A DNA stretch of 64,000 nucleotides from a virus (lineage: Duplodnaviria > Heunggongvirae > Uroviricota > Caudoviricetes): IMG/VR virus record IMGVR_UViG_3300045988_154391; one strand, given 5' to 3'. The first letter of the stretch is position 1. Each line of letters begins with the position of its first letter. The translations under genes and the position numbers were made by a program. Shown here piece after piece: positions 1 through 53,118 of the stretch. The notes under the pieces were generated by a model. The model had not been told where the DNA came from and made no database searches. It worked only from the letters and a program-made list of their open reading frames with translations.

Positions 1-689
1 TTCAGGCTGAAATTGATAAATGGACTTTAATGGCGCGGGAACTGGAACAGTACCCAGACCTCAATATCCCAAAGACTATTTTATATCCAGTGCCTAACAT
101 CCTTCGCGGTGTGCGCAAGGTTACAACTTATCAGACAGAAGCTGTGAACAGCGTCAACATGACCGCTGGCCGCATTATTCATCTGATTGATAAGGACATT
201 CGCATCCAAAAAAGCGCGGGGATCAATGAGCACAGTGCGAAATACATAGAGAACCTGGAAGCAACAAAAGAGCTAATGAGGCAGTACCCGGAGGATGAAA
301 AATTCCGTATGCGCGTACACGGCTTTAGCGAAACAATGCTGCGCGTCCACTACATTTCCAGTAGCCCTAACTACAATGATGGTAAATCAGTTAGTTACCA
401 TGTGCCACTGTGTGGCGTGTTTATCTGCGATGAAACTCTCCGTGATGGAATTATCATCAACGGTGAATTCGAAAAAGCAAAATTTAGCCTTTATGACTCC
501 ATAGAACCGATCATCTGCGACCGCTGGCCGCAAGCAAAAATATATCGCCTGGCAGATATTGAAAATGTAAAAAAACAAATTGCCATCACTCGCGAAGAGA
601 AAAAGGTTAAGTCAGCCGCATCAGTTACGCGCAGCCGTAAAACCAAGAAGGGGCAGCCAGTAAACGACAACCCCGAAAGCGCGCAATAA
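1..689 (+). CDS. 3' portion of an immunity repressor gene, possibly a P1 c1 homologue; 5' end lies outside the window
   Basis: Frame of ORF 30..689 stays open to position 3; converges on pacB as c1 does in P1; C1-operator-like 17-mers occur throughout the window. Identity is by synteny only. Confidence 0.45.
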   Translation, partial: QAEIDKWTLMARELEQYPDLNIPKTILYPVPNILRGVRKVTTYQTEAVNSVNMTAGRIIHLIDKDIRIQKSAGINEHSAKYIENLEATKELMRQYPEDEKFRMRVHGFSETMLRVHYISSSPNYNDGKSVSYHVPLCGVFICDETLRDGIIINGEFEKAKFSLYDSIEPIICDRWPQAKIYRLADIENVKKQIAITREEKKVKSAASVTRSRKTKKGQPVNDNPESAQ

Positions 690-694
690 ATTAT

Positions 695-712
695 GCCCGG
701 CATCAACCGGGC
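695..712. terminator. GC hairpin (GCCCGG-N6-CCGGGC) between two convergent genes; possible bidirectional terminator
   Basis: Perfect 6-bp stem read directly, 5 nt after the stop at 687-689 and 10 nt before the minus-strand stop at 722-724. Confidence 0.35.
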
Positions 713-721
713 ATTCTTCCA

Positions 722-1837
722 TTATTCAGCTGCCACCGGTTTTAACAAGCCAGCATCGAGCAGTTTACGCGTCAACCACTGCTGGCCTTTACCCGTTAAT
801 TGAGGCGTCAACCGTATCTGGTAGCCATCTTCATCATCCAGCACCACTTCTTTCACCGTGAAATACCCCGCGTTGATGTACTGCTGGAACGGCACATTTT
901 TACGTCCACCGGACGCTATCAGGATGCCGTTCTCCCGTAACCAGACAAACAGCGCGTTTTGCTTAAGTCCAACAACCTTTGCAAAATTCCCAATCAGGAT
1001 CCCTTTAGCTACTGATACCCGGTCGGCAAAATCGACTTTAGGAGCGGCGGCCACCAGCTGCTGATTTAGCTGGTGGGCTTTCTGTTCCAGAAGCTGCTTT
1101 TGTTCAGCCAGTTCGGCAGCCAGGCGCAGAGCTTCTGGAAGCGTCTGGGGGATTGCAACCGGTTGCTGTTCTTTTTGCCGGAAGTAGCTGTCTTCCAGTT
1201 TTTCAAAGAATGCCCATGCCTGATCGGTTTCGAGCATTTTAGCGTGGCGGGCTGCGCCGCGTTCCGTCCAGAGGATGAGTGAGCGGGCTTTAGGAGAGAT
1301 AGGATTTTGTGAGTTACTTAAAGTCACCCGCAAATTGTTCAAATCATCTCCAATAACTTTATAGAAATGCTTGCCTTCACAAAAACGTTCAGCATTACGG
1401 GAAAAGTTCTTCTTGATGTTATCCGCATCTGTCCCATACCCCTTAGCAAGGATCTTAGTTGTCACTACACGCACTCCCTGCCACTCTAGAACGGGAATTT
1501 CATCCGGCTGACTTTGAACAACCACCAGTTCTGATTCCTGAACTAAAGGTGTATTAATTTTTTCAGATTTAACGTTAGTAGCTTTCATTCTGTGTGCCTC
1601 CTTGCGTGTTTCGGCTGCGACGGTTGCGTAATTCAGATGCCCCTGTTCGAGCAGGTATTCACGGATATCAGACAGCAGGATACGGTGAACAGCGTTCTTG
1701 TCCTTTCTCCGGTAAAGTTGTTTGGTGATCATGAAGTAGTTGGCAATAACGCCTGGTATATCCCTGGTACTGATACAGGCAGTGTGCTGTTCAATTGCCT
1801 CGATCATCTCTTCACGGGTGACTAATGACGTTCTCAT
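722..1837 (-). CDS. ant: Antirepressor (Ant1-like): shared N-terminal region, central ORF6N/Bro-like segment, C-terminal KilAC/ANT domain
   Basis: 371 aa; C-terminal about 130 aa nearly identical to ORFs 51524..52570 and 50560..51360; start codon overlaps the stop of the upstream 73-aa gene (ATGA). Confidence 0.7.
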   Translation of the reverse strand: MRTSLVTREEMIEAIEQHTACISTRDIPGVIANYFMITKQLYRRKDKNAVHRILLSDIREYLLEQGHLNYATVAAETRKEAHRMKATNVKSEKINTPLVQESELVVVQSQPDEIPVLEWQGVRVVTTKILAKGYGTDADNIKKNFSRNAERFCEGKHFYKVIGDDLNNLRVTLSNSQNPISPKARSLILWTERGAARHAKMLETDQAWAFFEKLEDSYFRQKEQQPVAIPQTLPEALRLAAELAEQKQLLEQKAHQLNQQLVAAAPKVDFADRVSVAKGILIGNFAKVVGLKQNALFVWLRENGILIASGGRKNVPFQQYINAGYFTVKEVVLDDEDGYQIRLTPQLTGKGQQWLTRKLLDAGLLKPVAAE

Positions 1838-2055
1838 AGTCCCTCCTGAGCAGAAGCGTTAACAGGGAGGCACCAGTAACTGAGAGAATTGCGTGAATCA
1901 GTGGAAAAACGGGCAGAGAAAATACATGGGGCGTCAGGAAGCTGAGAGCGGGCCTCATCTTCTGTCGGTGCAATAACGAAGTGATAGTGACGTTTTTGGC
2001 AGGAGTAAAAGCGCCAGATAAATTCAGGATGAGTTGGGGTAGGGATAGTAGCCAT
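1834..2055 (-). CDS. icd: Icd-like small protein (73 aa), paralogue of ORF 52567..52788
   Basis: ORF 1834..2397 trimmed to the Met that aligns with the 73-aa paralogue (shared FIWRFYSC..HYHFVIA.TEDEARSQLPD); translationally coupled to ant as icd/ant are in P1. Confidence 0.5.
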   Translation of the reverse strand: MATIPTPTHPEFIWRFYSCQKRHYHFVIAPTEDEARSQLPDAPCIFSARFSTDSRNSLSYWCLPVNASAQEGL

Positions 2056-2213
2056 ATTGGCAGCCTCCTTAGACGTTGGTATGTAACCACCGCAGAAGAG
2101 ACCAATCTTGCTGGCGGTGGACTGTACGGAGTTGGCCTTACTGGCGTCCAAGGTAACCAGCCTACCCGAAGGTAGCCCCATACAGCCCACCATTGTAGAG
2201 GTGTGCGTGTACG

Positions 2214-2241
2214 CCGATACAAAAAAAGACGCGAGCGGCGT
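2214..2241 (-). terminator. Hairpin (GACGC-N5-GCGTC) followed by a T7 run on the minus strand, inside the leader upstream of the icd-like gene
   Basis: Read directly; lies between the operator-like site at 2374 and the icd-like start at 2055; could mark the 3' end of a short leader or antisense RNA. Confidence 0.3.
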
Positions 2242-2373
2242 CTGTATCGCCTTAGACTTAAGCGGGAGGCCAATCCCGGCACCCGTTTTAATGAGGTGCC
2301 TGATAAGCATAAACCGAAAATGCCTCAAGGCGCAAGAGGTCAGGTTCAATGTAACATCGGCAGTTAAAAAACA

Positions 2374-2390
2374 CAATTTATTAGAGCAAA
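2374..2390. promoter_or_regulatory. C1-operator-like 17-mer (15/17 to ATTGCTCTAATAAATTT, reverse orientation)
   Basis: caATTTATTAGAGCAAa read directly; immediately 3' of pacB and upstream of the icd/ant-like module. Confidence 0.45.
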
Positions 2391-2393
2391 TAT

Positions 2394-3878
2394 TCATTCA
2401 TTAAGCCATGCCAGAGCTTCATCAACCTGCGCTTCGTCTTCGACGCTAAGCACTTCATCCTGGGGAACATAATCCGCCAGCATAGCGAAACAATATGTAT
2501 CCCAATGGTCTGGTGAGTGCAGGTTGAGTTTTTTCTTCATATCCTCCTTACTCATCACCTTCCATTGACCTGCGGAGTTAATCCCTACAGGGATTTTCGA
2601 CGCTTCCTCAATAGTTTCATTACCCTTATCCAGTCTCATACGACCAGATTTTACGGCCTCTGCGGCTTGAACGTTGGCATAAGCACGTTTATCAAAGTAC
2701 AGGCTCTTATCTTCACGGCTATGCATCTTTTTACCCCAGCGTATACGCTGTACGGTAATACCATAATACTCGTACATCAGATCCGCCGTTGCTTTACCCA
2801 GCCCATCACCGTCTATCGCTATGGTGATATTTGGAAATCGCTCAGGATTACATTCTGCGAAAATTTTGGCGGCAAGCTGCGTTTCTGTAACGTCTGTGTA
2901 TTCCAGCATTCGATAGTTGATTACACGGCGTTTATTTCTCTGGCCGGACACCATCATGATATTGATAACGGACTTATCCCGTCCCGTACCACCAGCAACG
3001 TCCACACATGCAAGCCAGCCCCATCCTTTGGCAATCTTGACTTTCCGCCGCGTCGCACGTTCAACCTCATCACGTCCAAGAAGGAAGCCATCCTGTGATT
3101 TAGGGAATAGTCCGCGTACCTTAATCATGTACATAGGGTTATCACGCCCGCCGTACTCCGCCAGCTTCATTTTGATAAATGCTGGCGTTACCAGCGGTGA
3201 TTCCTCACTGTTAAGCGTGATCGCCGTATAAACGCCATCAGGGTTACCAGGACGCTTGGCCAGTTTATGGTGAGTATCGTAGAAATAGCCGCTTGGGCGT
3301 GTAGGCTGTGACAGTAATAAGATGCGGTTATCCTGTCCGGTAAGAGCACCGGTGATGATACCGAAAGCTCTATCACTGACACCGGAGGCTTCATCGATAA
3401 TATACAGAAGATGATCTGCGTGTTCACCGGCGAGAGCTTCTTCACTTCCCAGACGAAAGCCCTTCGGTACTACAGTCCATACACCTTTACCAGTAACCTC
3501 ATAGAAAGCGGTTTCTGTCAGAACAAAATAATCAGCAAGCCATGGAAAACGGCTGGTGGCAGTAGCCCAGTTTATCTTGATGTACTTGAATATACCGGTC
3601 ATTACCTGCTGAATTTTGTTCGCAACGATAATGGCGCGGGCACCGGGATACATGATTATGAACAACATGATCATGATAGAAGTCATGTCTGATTTCCCGG
3701 TACCGTGACCAGACGAAACAGATGTCTTGCTACCCTGTTCCTGCACAGACTCAATAATCAGATCCTGCTGCCAGGTAGGTGTTTTGCCGAACAAAACATC
3801 AGCGGCAGCAATCCAGTCATAACGATATAGCGCCACCAGCTCGCGCCAACGTGGATCCGTTACGCAACTTCTGGCCAT
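2394..3878 (-). CDS. pacB: Terminase large subunit (PacB-like)
   Basis: 494 aa; Walker A-like SGHGTGKS; sits directly after pacA with a 1-nt overlap; size matches what I recall for P1 PacB. Confidence 0.75.
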
Positions 3879-5071
3879 TAATCATCATCCCCGTATAGCT
3901 TGCGGGTAACTTCTTCGTCTTCCTCCTCGTCTTCGTCCAGGTCTTGTTCCAGCCATGGGTCGTTTGATACACCTTCAGTATCAACATCTCCATAACCGCC
4001 TGTATCAACGATATCGGCGATTTCTTCCCTACGCTGCTCAATCCACAATGCGGCATCGGCGCGGCGGTTGGCGGCCCGTTCTCGCGCAACTTTGTCCAGA
4101 TCTTCAAGAGAAGGGCCACCGACGGCTGTTTGCCTTTCCTCATCATCGGTATTGGTCTTAGGAGCACGCAGATCGGCTTTGATTTGCTCCAGCATCAGGG
4201 GCGGCACTTTTCCGCCATGCGCCTCGATGAATTCAGCTGCTTCCAGCACTGACCAGTTATTTTCACGCTTTCGTTCGTATGCCAGCTTAACAATGCCAGC
4301 TTGCCCCATAGATAAAGCGTGCTTTTCCGCCTCCCGGCTTTCTTTTCGATAGTTATTCCGAATGCTGTAAATGGTGTTGATCAGGCTGCTTATCTGCGCG
4401 GAACAGCTGTTTAGCATGCTCGCGATACGATATTCAGGCGGAGTCCCTTCATCATCGTCTTTTTGCTGATCGCGCATTTCCTGCACCAGACGAATACACG
4501 TATCCCTGGCGTTCTCCAGCATAAGGAGATGAGAAAGAGACTTTTCCAGAAGAGTGGTTTCCAGAACATCGGCCCCGGACCGACGCAACATAGCGCGCGC
4601 GGCCTTCCGCGCTTCAACGTTATCTATCAGGTAATCGCCAGCTTCGAATTCAAAGCGTTCACCATCATCATCCAGGGTGTCGCGTTCCAGGCGATCACGT
4701 AAGGTCCGGTGGGCGCGGGTGATCACGTCATGATCATCAGAACGATCATTTATGCGCTTATTTTGGCGCTTCGCATTCTCGACTGCGGCACTGACAACGG
4801 CATTAACCCTTTGTTTTTCCGCTATTTCAGCCGCAATGTGATCACCTGCATGTTGATCATTAGAGTGATCAATGATCATGCTTTTTAGTGGCTTCCTGAC
4901 TGGCTTATTTGGCTTGCGGCTGTCCGCTGTCCTGGTGTCTTCTTTGAAGGCACGGAGATAACGACGTGCAGTATTAGGGTTAAGATTAAACTCGGCGGCA
5001 TACTGTGCGATGGTGTAACCACCATCTCGCGCCAGGCGAGCAAAATTCTTCTTGTGATCGTCCCAGGTCAC
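3878..5071 (-). CDS. pacA: Terminase small / pac-recognition subunit (PacA-like)
   Basis: 397 aa; N-terminal HTH-like segment; acidic C-terminus; contains the GATC-hexamer pac site. Confidence 0.7.
4690..4880. other. pac packaging site: two clusters of four GATC-containing hexamers about 95 bp apart
   Basis: GATC at 4693, 4721, 4732, 4744 and at 4840, 4855, 4867, 4874, mostly as TGATCA/C/T; matches the Dam-regulated P1 pac architecture inside pacA. Confidence 0.6.
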
Positions 5072-5679: not shown

Positions 5680-5696
5680 CAATACATTAGAGCAAT
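5680..5696. promoter_or_regulatory. C1-operator-like 17-mer (14/17)
   Basis: caatacATTAGAGCAAT between ORF 5698..6741 and the lpa-like ORF. Confidence 0.35.
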
Positions 5697-48609: not shown

Positions 48610-49206
48610 ATGGCTGTGATTCCAATGTCGTACTCCCCGGGTACTGTCGCTCGTCGATTTTCGATCCTGGACGGAGTTACCATCCAGGGTGTGCTTTACC
48701 AGGTTATATGGGATTCCAAAACCCCATTTGCAGCTGTAATAGAGGCTGCGCCTTCTATTATCGATGGTGATATGCGCCATAAGGTTGTCGCTACTCTTGA
48801 ACTTCAACGTCGCCCGCAGCTTGAAGGCGTACTGGTAAGGAAGTTCTGGGAGGATAGCGATGTTGCCCAGATTGAAGGTATCGTGGTTGATGGAACCGTC
48901 CGGGATGTCGGTTTAGCTACTTTTGTTTACGAAACCGTAGCCTCAAAAGCTGGTGTTGTTTTGCTCAGTGATAATGAGCAATACGAAGGTGGAAAAGCTC
49001 TTTGGCAACACATCGCCCGTCGCTCTTCCGAGCTAAAAGTGTTTATCCTTGACACCGATGCCGCTCAGTATTACCCGTTTGACGGCGAACGTGTTTGCTA
49101 TGACGGGGTAAGTATTCCTGAATCCGAGATATGGAGTGAACACCCAGATCGAAGTAAGCATGGGGTTGTTCTGGTCGCTGAATCCATAATTGGAAATGCG
49201 GCATAG
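48610..49206 (+). CDS. Hypothetical protein, isolated gene with its own AT-rich upstream region
   Basis: ORF 48574..49206 trimmed to the ATG at 48610 (AGGGGGA upstream). Confidence 0.4.
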   Translation: MAVIPMSYSPGTVARRFSILDGVTIQGVLYQVIWDSKTPFAAVIEAAPSIIDGDMRHKVVATLELQRRPQLEGVLVRKFWEDSDVAQIEGIVVDGTVRDVGLATFVYETVASKAGVVLLSDNEQYEGGKALWQHIARRSSELKVFILDTDAAQYYPFDGERVCYDGVSIPESEIWSEHPDRSKHGVVLVAESIIGNAA

Positions 49207-49388
49207 CAGTAAAAAATTCCTTGCTCCTTAAAAGGGGAGAGGGTTAATCTACGTATGCTAAGCATAGATATGGCCTCAGATTAATGTTAAGCGTCTTGCA
49301 GGACGCGTAATGTTATCTGGGGCTTTCTTCTATCTGCTTTTCGGGTAATGCCTGAAGCAGATAGCCTCAAGCACCCGCAACGATTGTA

Positions 49389-49684: not shown

Positions 49685-50530
49685 TCACCCTCTGAATCCT
49701 GCCGGTATACCCCATTGTTCGTTATCTTTATTTTTGGCTAAAACCGCATTAAGAGCTTCGTTTACCGTCATGCAATGCGGCAAATTATCGAAGTTTGATA
49801 CCCCGCCAATATCAGGAGAACGCTTGTTCTTCAGGTAAGCATATTTCCGCGCTGCCGCCTCTACTTTCTGCTTGAACTCATGTTTTTGAGCGCGCTTTTT
49901 GGATAACCGCAGATTGTCAGCCTTTGCTTTTGCCTCAGCGATCCATGAAGTCAATTTTTTGAGTCTGCTCGTTCCGGCACCGCCGGAAACTGATCTTTTT
50001 GTTTTTTTAACTTGTGACTTCTTATTCTTTATTGCCACGTCATCCTGACAGGGGGAGGGGGTATCATTTTGACATGGGGGTGTGGATAAAAAATTAAATA
50101 AAGCCAATGTCTTAGCGAGAACAGCTTTAACCTTGGTTGCCGCTGAAGAGATCTTTAATTTGCTTTCAATCAGCGCATTTTTGGCTTGTTGTGCGAAGGC
50201 CAAAAAGGATGGCGTAAACCGGTACAGGTTAGCGCGACGTTCACGGTGATCGCCGATAACAATCTCTACAGACAGAATTCCTTTGTTTACAGCTTCACGG
50301 AATGCACGAACGACGGTTGATTGGCTATAACCAGTTTCTGCCGCGATCAGGCGGTGAGGCTTGTGAATGAAGTATTCACTGGTTGTTGCCGCGAGATTTG
50401 CACATTGCGACAGGATATGCCCGGCGCTACGGGATAGACCGGAGTATGTTACAAAGCAGGCCAATTCATAGCCAGAAAAAGTAAAATCGCTCATCGTTAT
50501 ACAGCTCAGGAAAGTGACTTTAGCCAGCAT
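49685..50530 (-). CDS. repL: Lytic replication initiator RepL-like protein
   Basis: 281 aa directly downstream of the kilA-like gene, as in the P1 kilA-repL operon. Confidence 0.65.
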   Translation of the reverse strand: MLAKVTFLSCITMSDFTFSGYELACFVTYSGLSRSAGHILSQCANLAATTSEYFIHKPHRLIAAETGYSQSTVVRAFREAVNKGILSVEIVIGDHRERRANLYRFTPSFLAFAQQAKNALIESKLKISSAATKVKAVLAKTLALFNFLSTPPCQNDTPSPCQDDVAIKNKKSQVKKTKRSVSGGAGTSRLKKLTSWIAEAKAKADNLRLSKKRAQKHEFKQKVEAAARKYAYLKNKRSPDIGGVSNFDNLPHCMTVNEALNAVLAKNKDNEQWGIPAGFRG

Positions 50531-51429: not shown

Positions 51430-51446
51430 AAATTTATTAGAGCAAA
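51430..51446. promoter_or_regulatory. C1-operator-like 17-mer (16/17) upstream of kilA-repL
   Basis: AAATTTATTAGAGCAAa. Confidence 0.55.
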
Positions 51447-51523: not shown

Positions 51524-52570
51524 TTAACCTATTGCTACTGGTTTTAACAAACCAGCATCAAGTAGCTTGCGAGTTAACCACTGCTGGCCTTTACCCGTTA
51601 ATTGGGGCGTCAGCCGTATCTGGTAGCCATTTTCATCATCCAGCACCACTTCTTTCACCGTGAAATATCCGGCGTTAATGTACTGCTGGCGCGGTACGTT
51701 TTTGCGCGCACCAAAAGCCATGAGAATGCCGTTCTGGCGCAACCATGAGAAAAGGGCGTTTTGCTTAAGTCCAACGACCTTTGCAAAGTTCCCGATCAGG
51801 ATTCCATTAGCCACTGATACCCGGTCGGCAAAATCGACTTTAGGGGCTGCGGCCACCAGCTGTTGTTCCAACTGCATTTTCTGTTCTGCCAACTCGGCAG
51901 CCAGGCGTAGAGCTTCTGGTAATGTTTGGGGGATCGATGGGGTAGGGGAGTTTGCCTGCTGCAATTCTTCCAGTTTGTCGATCAGCGAACGGCGGACCGC
52001 TTTCGATTCGCGAGCAGCAACGCGCAGGGCTTGTTTGTATGTCATTACTATAACTACCTGATCCGCTCCACCTTTTTTCTTATCCATAGGGGTTACGAAG
52101 ATTTCGTAACCCTCCCCATCAAGCTCATCCTTAACTCTGGCAATGAAATCATTGTTGCGAACTGGTTTTTCGCTACATAATTTCCGTGCCTCATTGACCA
52201 TCTTTAACAGTGTCAGGCTGTCGATTGTGTCTCCGGTGTTGGGGATAATATTCACGGCTGGTGCTGGCGTAGCTGACGTAACAGGTGCTGGTTTTTCAAC
52301 ATTCAAATTATTACCGGTCATTCTATGTGCCTCCTTTCTCATTTCTGCTGCCACTGTTGCGTAACGTAGACGTCCTTGTTCAATCAAATAATCCCTGATC
52401 TCGGCTATCAGTAGCCTGTTGATCACAGCCTTATCTGTTCGGGTATAAAAACGCCTGGTTATCATGAAATAGTTAGCAATTGCGCCGGGGATCTCCCGTG
52501 TCGGCATACAGGCAGTATGCAAAGCGATCGCTTCGGCTATTTCATTACGGGTGACGAGAGGTTTTTTCAT
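51524..52570 (-). CDS. ant: Antirepressor (Ant-like) with KilAC/ANT C-terminal domain
   Basis: 348 aa; N- and C-terminal thirds paralogous to ORF 722..1837, central third different; 4-nt overlap with the icd-like gene. Confidence 0.75.
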   Translation of the reverse strand: MKKPLVTRNEIAEAIALHTACMPTREIPGAIANYFMITRRFYTRTDKAVINRLLIAEIRDYLIEQGRLRYATVAAEMRKEAHRMTGNNLNVEKPAPVTSATPAPAVNIIPNTGDTIDSLTLLKMVNEARKLCSEKPVRNNDFIARVKDELDGEGYEIFVTPMDKKKGGADQVVIVMTYKQALRVAARESKAVRRSLIDKLEELQQANSPTPSIPQTLPEALRLAAELAEQKMQLEQQLVAAAPKVDFADRVSVANGILIGNFAKVVGLKQNALFSWLRQNGILMAFGARKNVPRQQYINAGYFTVKEVVLDDENGYQIRLTPQLTGKGQQWLTRKLLDAGLLKPVAIG

Positions 52571-52788
52571 AAAACCCCCTGAACGTCGGCAGAGAAGGGG
52601 AGGTTCCAGTAACTAAGTGAATTGCGCGAGTTAGTTGAAAAACGGGCAGTAAAAATGCAGGGGCCATCAGGCAATTGGGAGCGTGCTTCGTCTTCTGTTG
52701 CTGCGATAACGAAGTGATAGTGGTGTTTTTTACAGGAATAGAAACGCCAGATGAATTCTTGGCGTGCGCAAGGATTGGCATTAACCAT
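52567..52788 (-). CDS. icd: Icd-like small protein (73 aa)
   Basis: Paralogue of ORF 1834..2055; translationally coupled to ant. Confidence 0.55.
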   Translation of the reverse strand: MVNANPCARQEFIWRFYSCKKHHYHFVIAATEDEARSQLPDGPCIFTARFSTNSRNSLSYWNLPFSADVQGVL

Positions 52789-53118
52789 AGTTACGGCCTC
52801 GTAAGTTGATAAACAACCTGCGACCCGCTGTCAAACAGGTGGCAGGACGTGACAGGGTTGACAGACTGGCACTTACGAAACCAGCAGGCCGAAGCCTCCC
52901 CATCACGCCCCACCATAATTCGGGCGTAACGTGGTTTTACGGACACAAAAATACCGCAATATCGGAAATGTGCGGTTGTCCGCGTAAGTATTCAGGCTGT
53001 CAAACCTGGTCGCAGAATTTGCTGCGACGGCGGAACTATAAGCCTGAACGATTAAAAGGTCAATATGATGCGAAAAGATAGCATTCGTGACTTAAAAATA
53101 CAAATTTATTAGAGCATT

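Follow-up and report, generated by a model that had tools for sequence, protein, structure and literature searches.

The window analysed here is a 64,000-nucleotide stretch of DNA from a P1-like member of the Caudoviricetes (IMG/VR record IMGVR_UViG_3300045988_154391). Between the repressor gene c1 and pacB it contains an interval (690..2393, minus strand), hereafter the cassette, that is probably a second complete ImmI-type immunity operon, genuine and functional-looking as judged from its sequence. The antisense RNA C4 encoded in the cassette, together with its targets, differs from that of the resident, canonical immI operon near kilA-repL at essentially every specificity position, so that the element most likely possesses two antirepressor switches, each linked to C1 and each with a gate of its own.

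The left flank of the cassette is the 3' part of c1 (ORF 3..689, plus strand; the C-terminal 228 residues, truncated by the start of the window). Its product is 99.1% identical to residues 56-283 of P1 C1, and both the RCS47 record and PGAP records annotate the same gene as c1. A first-pass annotation of the window, which drew on the letters and a list of open reading frames (ORFs) without database searches, had proposed ORF 1..689 as a putative c1, and the identity to P1 C1 bears this out. The right flank is pacB (2394..3878, minus strand; 88.7% identity to P1 PacB), with pacA beyond it on the same strand; neither C1 nor PacB had a Pfam match. The distance between the c1 and pacB stop codons is 24 bp in P1, P7 and SJ46 versus 1704 bp (690..2393) in the window, and SJ46 has the 24-bp junction even though its flanks are 98.7% identical to those of the window. 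Because the P1 junction is only 24 bp long, the interval is a true insertion into, or replacement allele of, the c1-pacB junction. Thus c1 and pacB are indeed near neighbors in P1, with no icd or ant between them, as assumed when this copy was first proposed to be inserted. We found no direct repeats flanking 690..2393, and its boundaries coincide exactly with both stop codons. An origin as a transposon or insertion sequence (IS) was rejected on these grounds, and the pattern of edges fits module exchange through recombination. An inverted repeat next to c1 (Table 1) belongs to the inserted DNA and is missing at the P1 and SJ46 junctions.

The components of the 1.7-kb cassette were all found where the first-pass annotation had placed them between c1 and pacB. 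The C1-operator-like 17-mer (2374..2390) matches the consensus at 15 of 17 positions; the leader hairpin with its T-run (2214..2241) is terminator-like, with a stem at 2243..2227 followed by T7; the 73-aa icd-like gene (1834..2055) matches the phage_ICD_like hidden Markov model (HMM); and the coupled 371-aa antirepressor (722..1837) has ORF6N, KilAC/ANT and phrog_63 matches and the expected ATGA overlap. The second copy of this architecture beside kilA-repL proved to be the canonical immI (about 51524..53118). A C4-like antisense RNA, which had been raised as something to look for in the leader, is present as an Rfam C4 match of 75.9 bits.

The leader of the cassette contains two RNA elements, an IsrK-family small RNA that ends in an intrinsic terminator and, downstream of it, C4. 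The predicted fold of this C4 agrees with the structure of its family. Its b' loop is complementary to both b1 and b2, and its a' segment to both a1 and a2; b1 and a1 lie within the IsrK-like element, and b2 covers the Shine-Dalgarno (SD) sequence of the icd-like gene. The 8-mer GUCUAAGG occurs in the 64-kb window only at its two target sites. When the full leader is folded to its minimum free energy, a1 and b1 pair with a' and b' in cis.

We counted covariation on an alignment of 10 distinct leaders. For the pairs b'-b2 plus a'-a2, 95.6% of the alignment cells were paired and 8 of 16 base pairs had changed on both sides; for b'-b1 plus a'-a1, the corresponding values were 98.8% and, again, 8 of 16. 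Taken alone, a'-a2 was paired in 100% of cells, with compensatory changes in 4 of 7 pairs. None of 500 shuffles matched the covariation score of either pair set. Sliding the partner by 1-3 columns left pairing at only 27-53% (27-51% for the set with b2 and a2), a comparison that favors the unslid register since the pairing structure was taken from one of the 10 sequences. Among complete E. coli plasmids and 79 IMG/VR loci (L064, L068 and L086 were left out of the typing), the c1-pacB site shows five (b',a') combinations, each with concerted changes at all four targets. Joint change of three sites across specificity types would be hard to explain other than by selection on the pairing.

The two operons of the window differ in the same positions that vary among relatives. 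The specificity segments b' and a' are UUCGUAAGU and CUGUCAA in the C4 of the canonical immI, and CCUUGGACG and AGGCCAA in that of the cassette; together with their targets, the two are different at essentially every specificity position. To estimate how far each C4 would recognize the targets of the other, we computed duplex energies from loop-only segments; RNAduplex runs with whole C4 molecules gave no discrimination, as the C4 stem is then unfolded. The resulting energy matrix was diagonal, with cognate b'-b2 duplexes of all types reaching -11 to -14 kcal/mol. The immI C4 on the cassette target gave -3.9 kcal/mol, and the cassette C4 on the immI target gave -9.2 kcal/mol versus -13.9 on its own, a cross-pairing due to the anti-SD motif CCUU in its b' loop. 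As a yardstick we used P1 and P7, because these phages are heteroimmune, and small immI differences have been held responsible for this (PMC6906374): their C4 RNAs gave -4.9 and -5.5 kcal/mol on each other's targets versus -11.7 on their own. On these pairing energies, the two C4 gates of the window are predicted, very probably, not to cross-react. The first-pass annotation had proposed that the element, if both copies are functional, has two C1-controlled antirepressor systems, which is supported, and that their different central domains could change immunity specificity, which is not. Immunity specificity most likely lies in the C4 loops and their targets, since these are wholly different in the two operons and change together from relative to relative. 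In contigs with two or three modules, the specificity types were always different.

The coding part of the cassette follows the order known from P1. The icd-like protein has 79% identity to its immI counterpart in the window and 80% to P1 Icd, with which it shares its length of 73 aa; Pfam gave no match for the 73-aa proteins. The icd-like stop and the ant1-like start overlap by 4 nt (ATGA, 1837..1834), as in P1 icd/ant1, and Met84 of the antirepressor, the putative start of a nested ant2-like frame, is at the position of the P1 ant2 start within ant1. The cassette and immI Ant proteins are 54% identical overall, and both match phrog_63 over their full length. Residues 1-84 of the cassette protein (Ant-1) resemble the Ant1-specific N-terminus of P1, residues 116-201 form an ORF6N central domain that is absent from P1 and P7 Ant, and residues 259-360 are a KilAC/ANT domain that the window's immI Ant shares almost unchanged. 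The cassette thus appears to be a mosaic of an isrK/C4-type leader like those of P4-like satellites, Stx phages and Gifsy-1, an icd-like gene and a P1-type Ant1/Ant2 in which ORF6N replaces the central domain. A search of PDB sequences with Ant-1 returned no match. A reading of the cassette as a defense system was unsupported, as PADLOC gave just weak matches to the ORF6N region.

A predicted C1 operator precedes these genes, 3 bp from the pacB stop, and is retained in the cassette variants L006, L009 and L010. Operator-like 17-mers with at most 3 mismatches number 11 in the window, versus 0.24 expected. The ten others lie at 5680, 15818, 17910/17959, 21583, 32122/32133, 35979, 51430 and 53102; those at 32122..32149 form an overlapping divergent pair, and that at 51430..51446 is upstream of kilA, at the position of Op53. 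We assigned two candidate promoters by alignment to the annotated P51a and P51b of P1; for the P51b-like candidate, the predicted +1 near 2299 is also the start of the IsrK model match.

Table 1. Features of the c1-pacB cassette and, for comparison, of the canonical immI operon of the window
Feature	Position	Strand	Sequence or remarks
Cassette: inverted repeat	693..714		ATGCCCGG-N6-CCGGGCAT; between convergent c1 and ant; putative bidirectional terminator; minus-strand terminator-like site
Cassette: ant1-like antirepressor	722..1837	-	371 aa; Pfam ORF6N and KilAC/ANT; phrog_63 'anti-repressor Ant' over full length
Cassette: nested ant2-like frame (putative)	722..1588	-	start Met84 (ATG 1588..1586), SD AAGGAGG 1603..1597
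Cassette: icd-like gene	1834..2055	-	73 aa; NCBIfam NF033153 phage_ICD_like, E 2.6e-13, 49.8 bits (cutoff 25)
Cassette: b2 target	2064..2075 (b2 site 2075..2067)	-	CGUCUAAGG; on icd-like Shine-Dalgarno AAGGAGG; 9-bp complementarity to C4 b' loop
Cassette: a2 target	2099..2105	-	UUGGUCU; 7-bp complementarity to C4 a', one G-U
Cassette: C4 antisense RNA gene	2110..2197	-	Rfam RF01695, 75.9 bits (gathering 45), full model length
Cassette: C4 a'	2138..2132	-	AGGCCAA; single-stranded segment of C4
Cassette: C4 b' loop	2153..2145	-	CCUUGGACG; C4 hairpin loop
Cassette: IsrK-family small RNA element	2222..2299	-	Rfam RF01394, 60.8 bits (gathering 50), model positions 1-77
Cassette: intrinsic terminator	stem 2243..2227	-	stem and T7; terminator-like site; end of IsrK-like element
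Cassette: b1	2258..2250	-	AGUCUAAGG; within IsrK-like element; complementary to b' loop
Cassette: a1	2273..2267	-	UUGGCCU; within IsrK-like element, in IsrK hairpin loop
Cassette: P51b-like promoter candidate	2306..2335	-	TTGCGC-17 nt-TATGCT; aligned to P1 P1c4/P51b hexamers
Cassette: P51a-like promoter candidate	2348..2376	-	TTGTGT-17 nt-TACATT; -35 overlaps operator; position homologous to P1 P2c4/P51a
Cassette: C1 operator (predicted)	2374..2390	-	TTTGCTCTAATAAATTG; 15/17 to consensus; 3 bp from pacB stop; aligns with P1 Oc4/Op51
Canonical immI operon	51524..53118	-	Ant 99% identical to P7 Ant1
immI ant1/2	51524..52570	-	
immI icd	52567..52788	-	
immI C4	52835..52920	-	Rfam
immI c4-a1b1	52989..53041	-	Rfam
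immI P51b	53063..53035	-	
immI operator	53102..53118	-	C1 operator

The arrangement suggests how the cassette may work. In P1, according to the annotation of NC_005856, C4 blocks translation of icd, and with it that of the coupled ant, and Ant1 and Ant2 inactivate C1; the role of a1/b1 is still annotated as 'putative'. In the cassette, two promoters would lie beside the pacB stop, the upstream one under the C1 operator and shut in the lysogen, the downstream, P51b-like one constitutive. Most transcripts would end at the intrinsic terminator and yield a 78-nt IsrK-like RNA bearing a1/b1, and read-through transcripts would include C4, probably processed out. The b' loop and a' segment of C4 would then pair with b2, over the icd-like SD, and with a2, blocking translation of the icd-like gene; because ant1 is translationally coupled to it through the ATGA overlap, Ant would not be made either. 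Where C4 is absent or outnumbered, the Icd-like and Ant1/Ant2-like proteins would be made and Ant would inactivate C1. Possible triggers are entry into a cell without a matching C4, or titration of C4 by the IsrK-like RNA, which may thus serve as a decoy and so fix the threshold for C4. We propose a decoy because the region complementary to the IsrK-like RNA is C4 itself, together with the cis pairing in the leader fold.

If this scheme is true, a second C4 specificity beside c1 would render its carrier immune to more relatives and let it overcome more resident prophages. A prophage with two C4 species would silence an incoming ant of either type, and an infecting phage with two ant genes would escape any resident that is missing either C4.

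We compared the cassette with four kinds of related system. With ImmI of P1 and P7 it shares the operator, two promoters, a1/b1, C4, a2/b2 on the icd ribosome-binding site, icd, the ATGA-coupled ant1 and the nested ant2, as well as the 80% identity of Icd and homologous N- and C-termini of Ant. It differs in location, as ImmI lies between sim and kilA (kilA-repL); in its a1/b1 element, which scores 60.8 bits with the isrK model versus 20.5 bits, below threshold, with the overlapping c4-a1b1 match, and which has an intrinsic terminator; in the diverged stem and loops of C4, with wholly different a'/b' specificity; and in the ORF6N central domain of Ant. No terminator like that of the cassette was flagged in the window's immI. 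At the sequence level, the cassette shows every diagnostic trait of an ImmI operon except the genomic position. The window's own immI C4 is a variant in its own right: its b' loop, CGUAAGU, is neither that of P1 (CACUAAC) nor that of P7 (CACAAUC), and its a' is of the P1 type, CUGUCAA. IMG/VR loci with a P1-type leader show further b'/a' combinations, so this family, too, is combinatorially diverse.

The closest parallel for the leader is the isrK-orf45(STnc1160)-anrP locus of Gifsy-1 in Salmonella (Hershko-Shalev et al. 2016; PMC4825925). Both have an IsrK-family small RNA with its own terminator, a read-through mRNA in which a small ORF is coupled to an antirepressor, and a downstream RNA complementary to IsrK (processed in Gifsy-1), and the cassette leader folds like 'structure A'. 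In Gifsy-1, read-through, trans-activation and the coupling of the upstream ORF to the antirepressor have been shown experimentally: most transcripts stop at the IsrK terminator, and the short RNA, for which Hfq binding was shown as well, activates the upstream ORF and the antirepressor in trans (PMC4825925). The small ORF of the cassette differs from the 45-aa Gifsy-1 ORF, which lies within the region, in being a 73-aa icd homologue downstream of C4; as compared from sequence, the cassette also has a C1 operator, a P1-Ant-like antirepressor and no link to antQ.

Similar leaders also occur outside the phage-plasmids. In the P4 family (seqA/CI RNA/seqC), a P4-like satellite in the chromosome of E. 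coli ECONIH5 (L012, 3096..3284), which has a TOPRIM/DUF927 primase neighborhood, matches the cassette from isrK through C4 to the icd start at 87.7% identity over 300 bp. Its a', a1 and a2 are identical to those of the cassette, its b' specificity is different (UCCUUGAUUG versus ACCUUGGACG), and replication genes rather than ant lie downstream. P4 CI RNA is reported to act through premature transcription termination (summarized in PMC4825925), in contrast to the translation block of the P1 model. Conceivably, the satellite and the phage-plasmid engage in partial cross-talk. In Shiga toxin (Stx) phages, the region upstream of genes for Rha-family regulators or AntB antirepressors is about 80% identical to the cassette leader over about 257 nt; the isrK-C4 leader type is found in Stx phage P13374 (L094, 2501..2755) and about 90 other records of Stx or lambdoid phages.

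The cassette itself belongs to a familiar kind of system, of which it is a common and previously recorded variant, and its RNA families are already in Rfam. RCS47, pTZ20_1P and other P1-like phage-plasmids have the same cassette at the same junction; their records list only the genes, without the C4 and IsrK RNAs, the operator or specificity types, and several of these relatives belong to other (b',a') types. The filled junction allele is found in phages RCS47 (96.5% identity over 1..4200), vB_EcoM-673R5 and JL22 and, at ≥80% coverage, in 281 PLSDB plasmids. A cassette probe (1100..2393) was covered to ≥80% in 250 of 5426 complete E. coli genomes, and P1-type pacB was present in 541. The arrangement is neither unusual nor new: the allele is common, the RCS47 record annotates ant at this site, and Venturini 2019 reported that ant, along with two short hypothetical orfs, is inserted at the pacB-c1 junction (PMC6906374). 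In the literature searched, that one sentence was the only report, with no functional study of the cassette, and we found no description of its RNA anatomy, its separate specificity relative to the resident immI or its combinatorial types.

In all relatives inspected the cassette adjoins c1, with pacB on the other side unless replaced by an IS element. Damaged c1-pacB cassettes include L007:1123-2240, L013:1123-2241, L008:2765-3733, L013:2649-3346 and L009:2620-3317; in such copies IS5 or IS1 elements can replace the promoter side and pacB. One plasmid, pJMK02 (L011, 1123..3015), has an isrK-type leader beside kilA, at the canonical immI site, together with an Ant of 469 aa in which an ORF6N domain is present along with the P1-type central region. 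The isrK-type module thus seems able to serve as the immunity operon of a P1-like element. Further c4-icd-ant modules replace ref between c8 and mat (P1 2069..2629) in L081, L082, L083, L088 and L090, and lie directly after mat (P1 3469) in L077, L080 and L087; the present window begins inside c1, and its ref/mat region lies outside.

Several observations weigh against a working second immunity operon. A generic promoter scan flagged neither cassette promoter, and both candidates are weak, matching at most 8 of 12 consensus positions (8/12 for the P51b-like one). The a2 duplex is just 7 bp, a G-U pair included, and the anti-SD CCUU in the cassette b' loop would allow weak cross-pairing with any SD. 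The central domain of Ant-1 is unlike that of P1 Ant, making binding to C1 uncertain. P1, P7 and SJ46 are among many P1-like elements without the cassette; L007 has a frameshifted ant and L013 an ant with an internal stop; and in L008 and L013 the promoter side has given way to IS elements. Such decayed and disrupted copies imply that the cassette is dispensable. It might be a silent or decaying passenger, kept by linkage or recombination without effect on immunity, a reading to which the weak promoter matches, the pseudogenised or IS-disrupted copies and its absence from three fully functional phages all lend some weight. We consider this quite improbable: no ORF, RNA, operator or terminator of the cassette is damaged in the window, the cassette persists in about 250 complete genomes of E. 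coli versus about 541 with P1-type pacB, and the three-way compensatory evolution of b'/b1/b2 and a'/a1/a2 over five types would require selection on pairing.

In a second alternative, the RNA gate works as proposed but Ant-1 acts on repressors or functions of other co-resident mobile elements rather than on P1 C1, as a module for cross-talk or against competitors. The unrelated central domain of Ant-1 would suit such a role, as would the resemblance of the leader to those of Stx-phage Rha/AntB genes (about 80%) and of the P4-like satellite (87.7%, with the same a'), and the homologous Gifsy-1 circuit induces its own prophage through AnrP. This alternative is nevertheless unlikely, given that Ant-1 shares with P1/P7 Ant the Ant1-specific N-terminus and, almost identically, the KilAC C-terminus, that the cassette lies under a predicted C1 operator, that it is essentially confined to P1-like elements at a fixed site beside c1, and that an ORF6N-containing Ant occupies the canonical immI site in pJMK02. 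The leader could, in another alternative, encode a protein instead of regulatory RNAs, either a member of the 'Ash family' or a 187-aa, N-terminally extended Icd (1834..2397). Indeed, no stop codon interrupts this frame between ATG 2397 and the icd-like stop, across the IsrK and C4 genes, Pfam Phage_ASH (PF10554) matches residues 35-126 (E 2.3e-11), and PGAP calls an 'ash family protein' here in relatives. Yet close relatives differ in their 'ash' ORF, which ranges between 39 aa and a partial pseudogene, leader indels of 1, 5 and 15 nt between cassette types shift the frame locally, and the variable positions are exactly those that preserve RNA-RNA pairing; two Rfam models score above threshold, and a strong SD (AAGGAGG) precedes the icd-like ATG at 2055, which opens a frame of 73 aa, the length of P1 Icd. 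As the length and frame of the 'ash' ORF are not conserved and the RNA pairing is, we read it as a translated RNA gene, and PF10554 seems to model a translated RNA region; that the leader encodes a protein is hardly credible. A second ImmI-type operon, with its antirepressor directed at C1, remains the reading that we prefer.

Extended to the whole group, the comparisons allow a broader proposal, which we offer tentatively and to which we give slightly less than even credence. P1-like phage-plasmids may collect several antirepressor switches, each gated by RNA and none cross-reacting with another, at fixed hot spots (immI, c1-pacB, the ref locus and the mat-res junction). The a' and b' elements of these switches would diversify and recombine combinatorially in an arms race that widens their own immunity and breaks that of residents without the matching C4, with cross-talk to satellites and Stx phages and with isrK-type a1/b1 released as a decoy RNA. 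The picture of P1 immunity would be unchanged in principle. E. coli and Salmonella commonly harbor P1-like phage-plasmids, often with resistance genes, and the coexistence, exclusion and induction of these elements depend on immunity circuits. For Rfam, isrK and c4-a1b1 appear at the same position upstream of C4, with the same kind of target sites, as two leader subfamilies. A consequence for annotation is that ORFs called in this interval as 'hypothetical' or as 'ash family protein' share their DNA with two regulatory RNA genes; of the latter kind, the PGAP calls at L005:2481-2798 and L006:2475-2594 overlap the C4 RNA gene.

Lastly, Rfam searches of the window identified a sok antitoxin RNA (49202..49376, minus strand; 94.7 bits) just past a 281-aa ORF (49685..50530), which points to a hok/sok-type addiction module, and three tRNA genes on the minus strand (29395..29467, 31314..31386 and 31392..31464).

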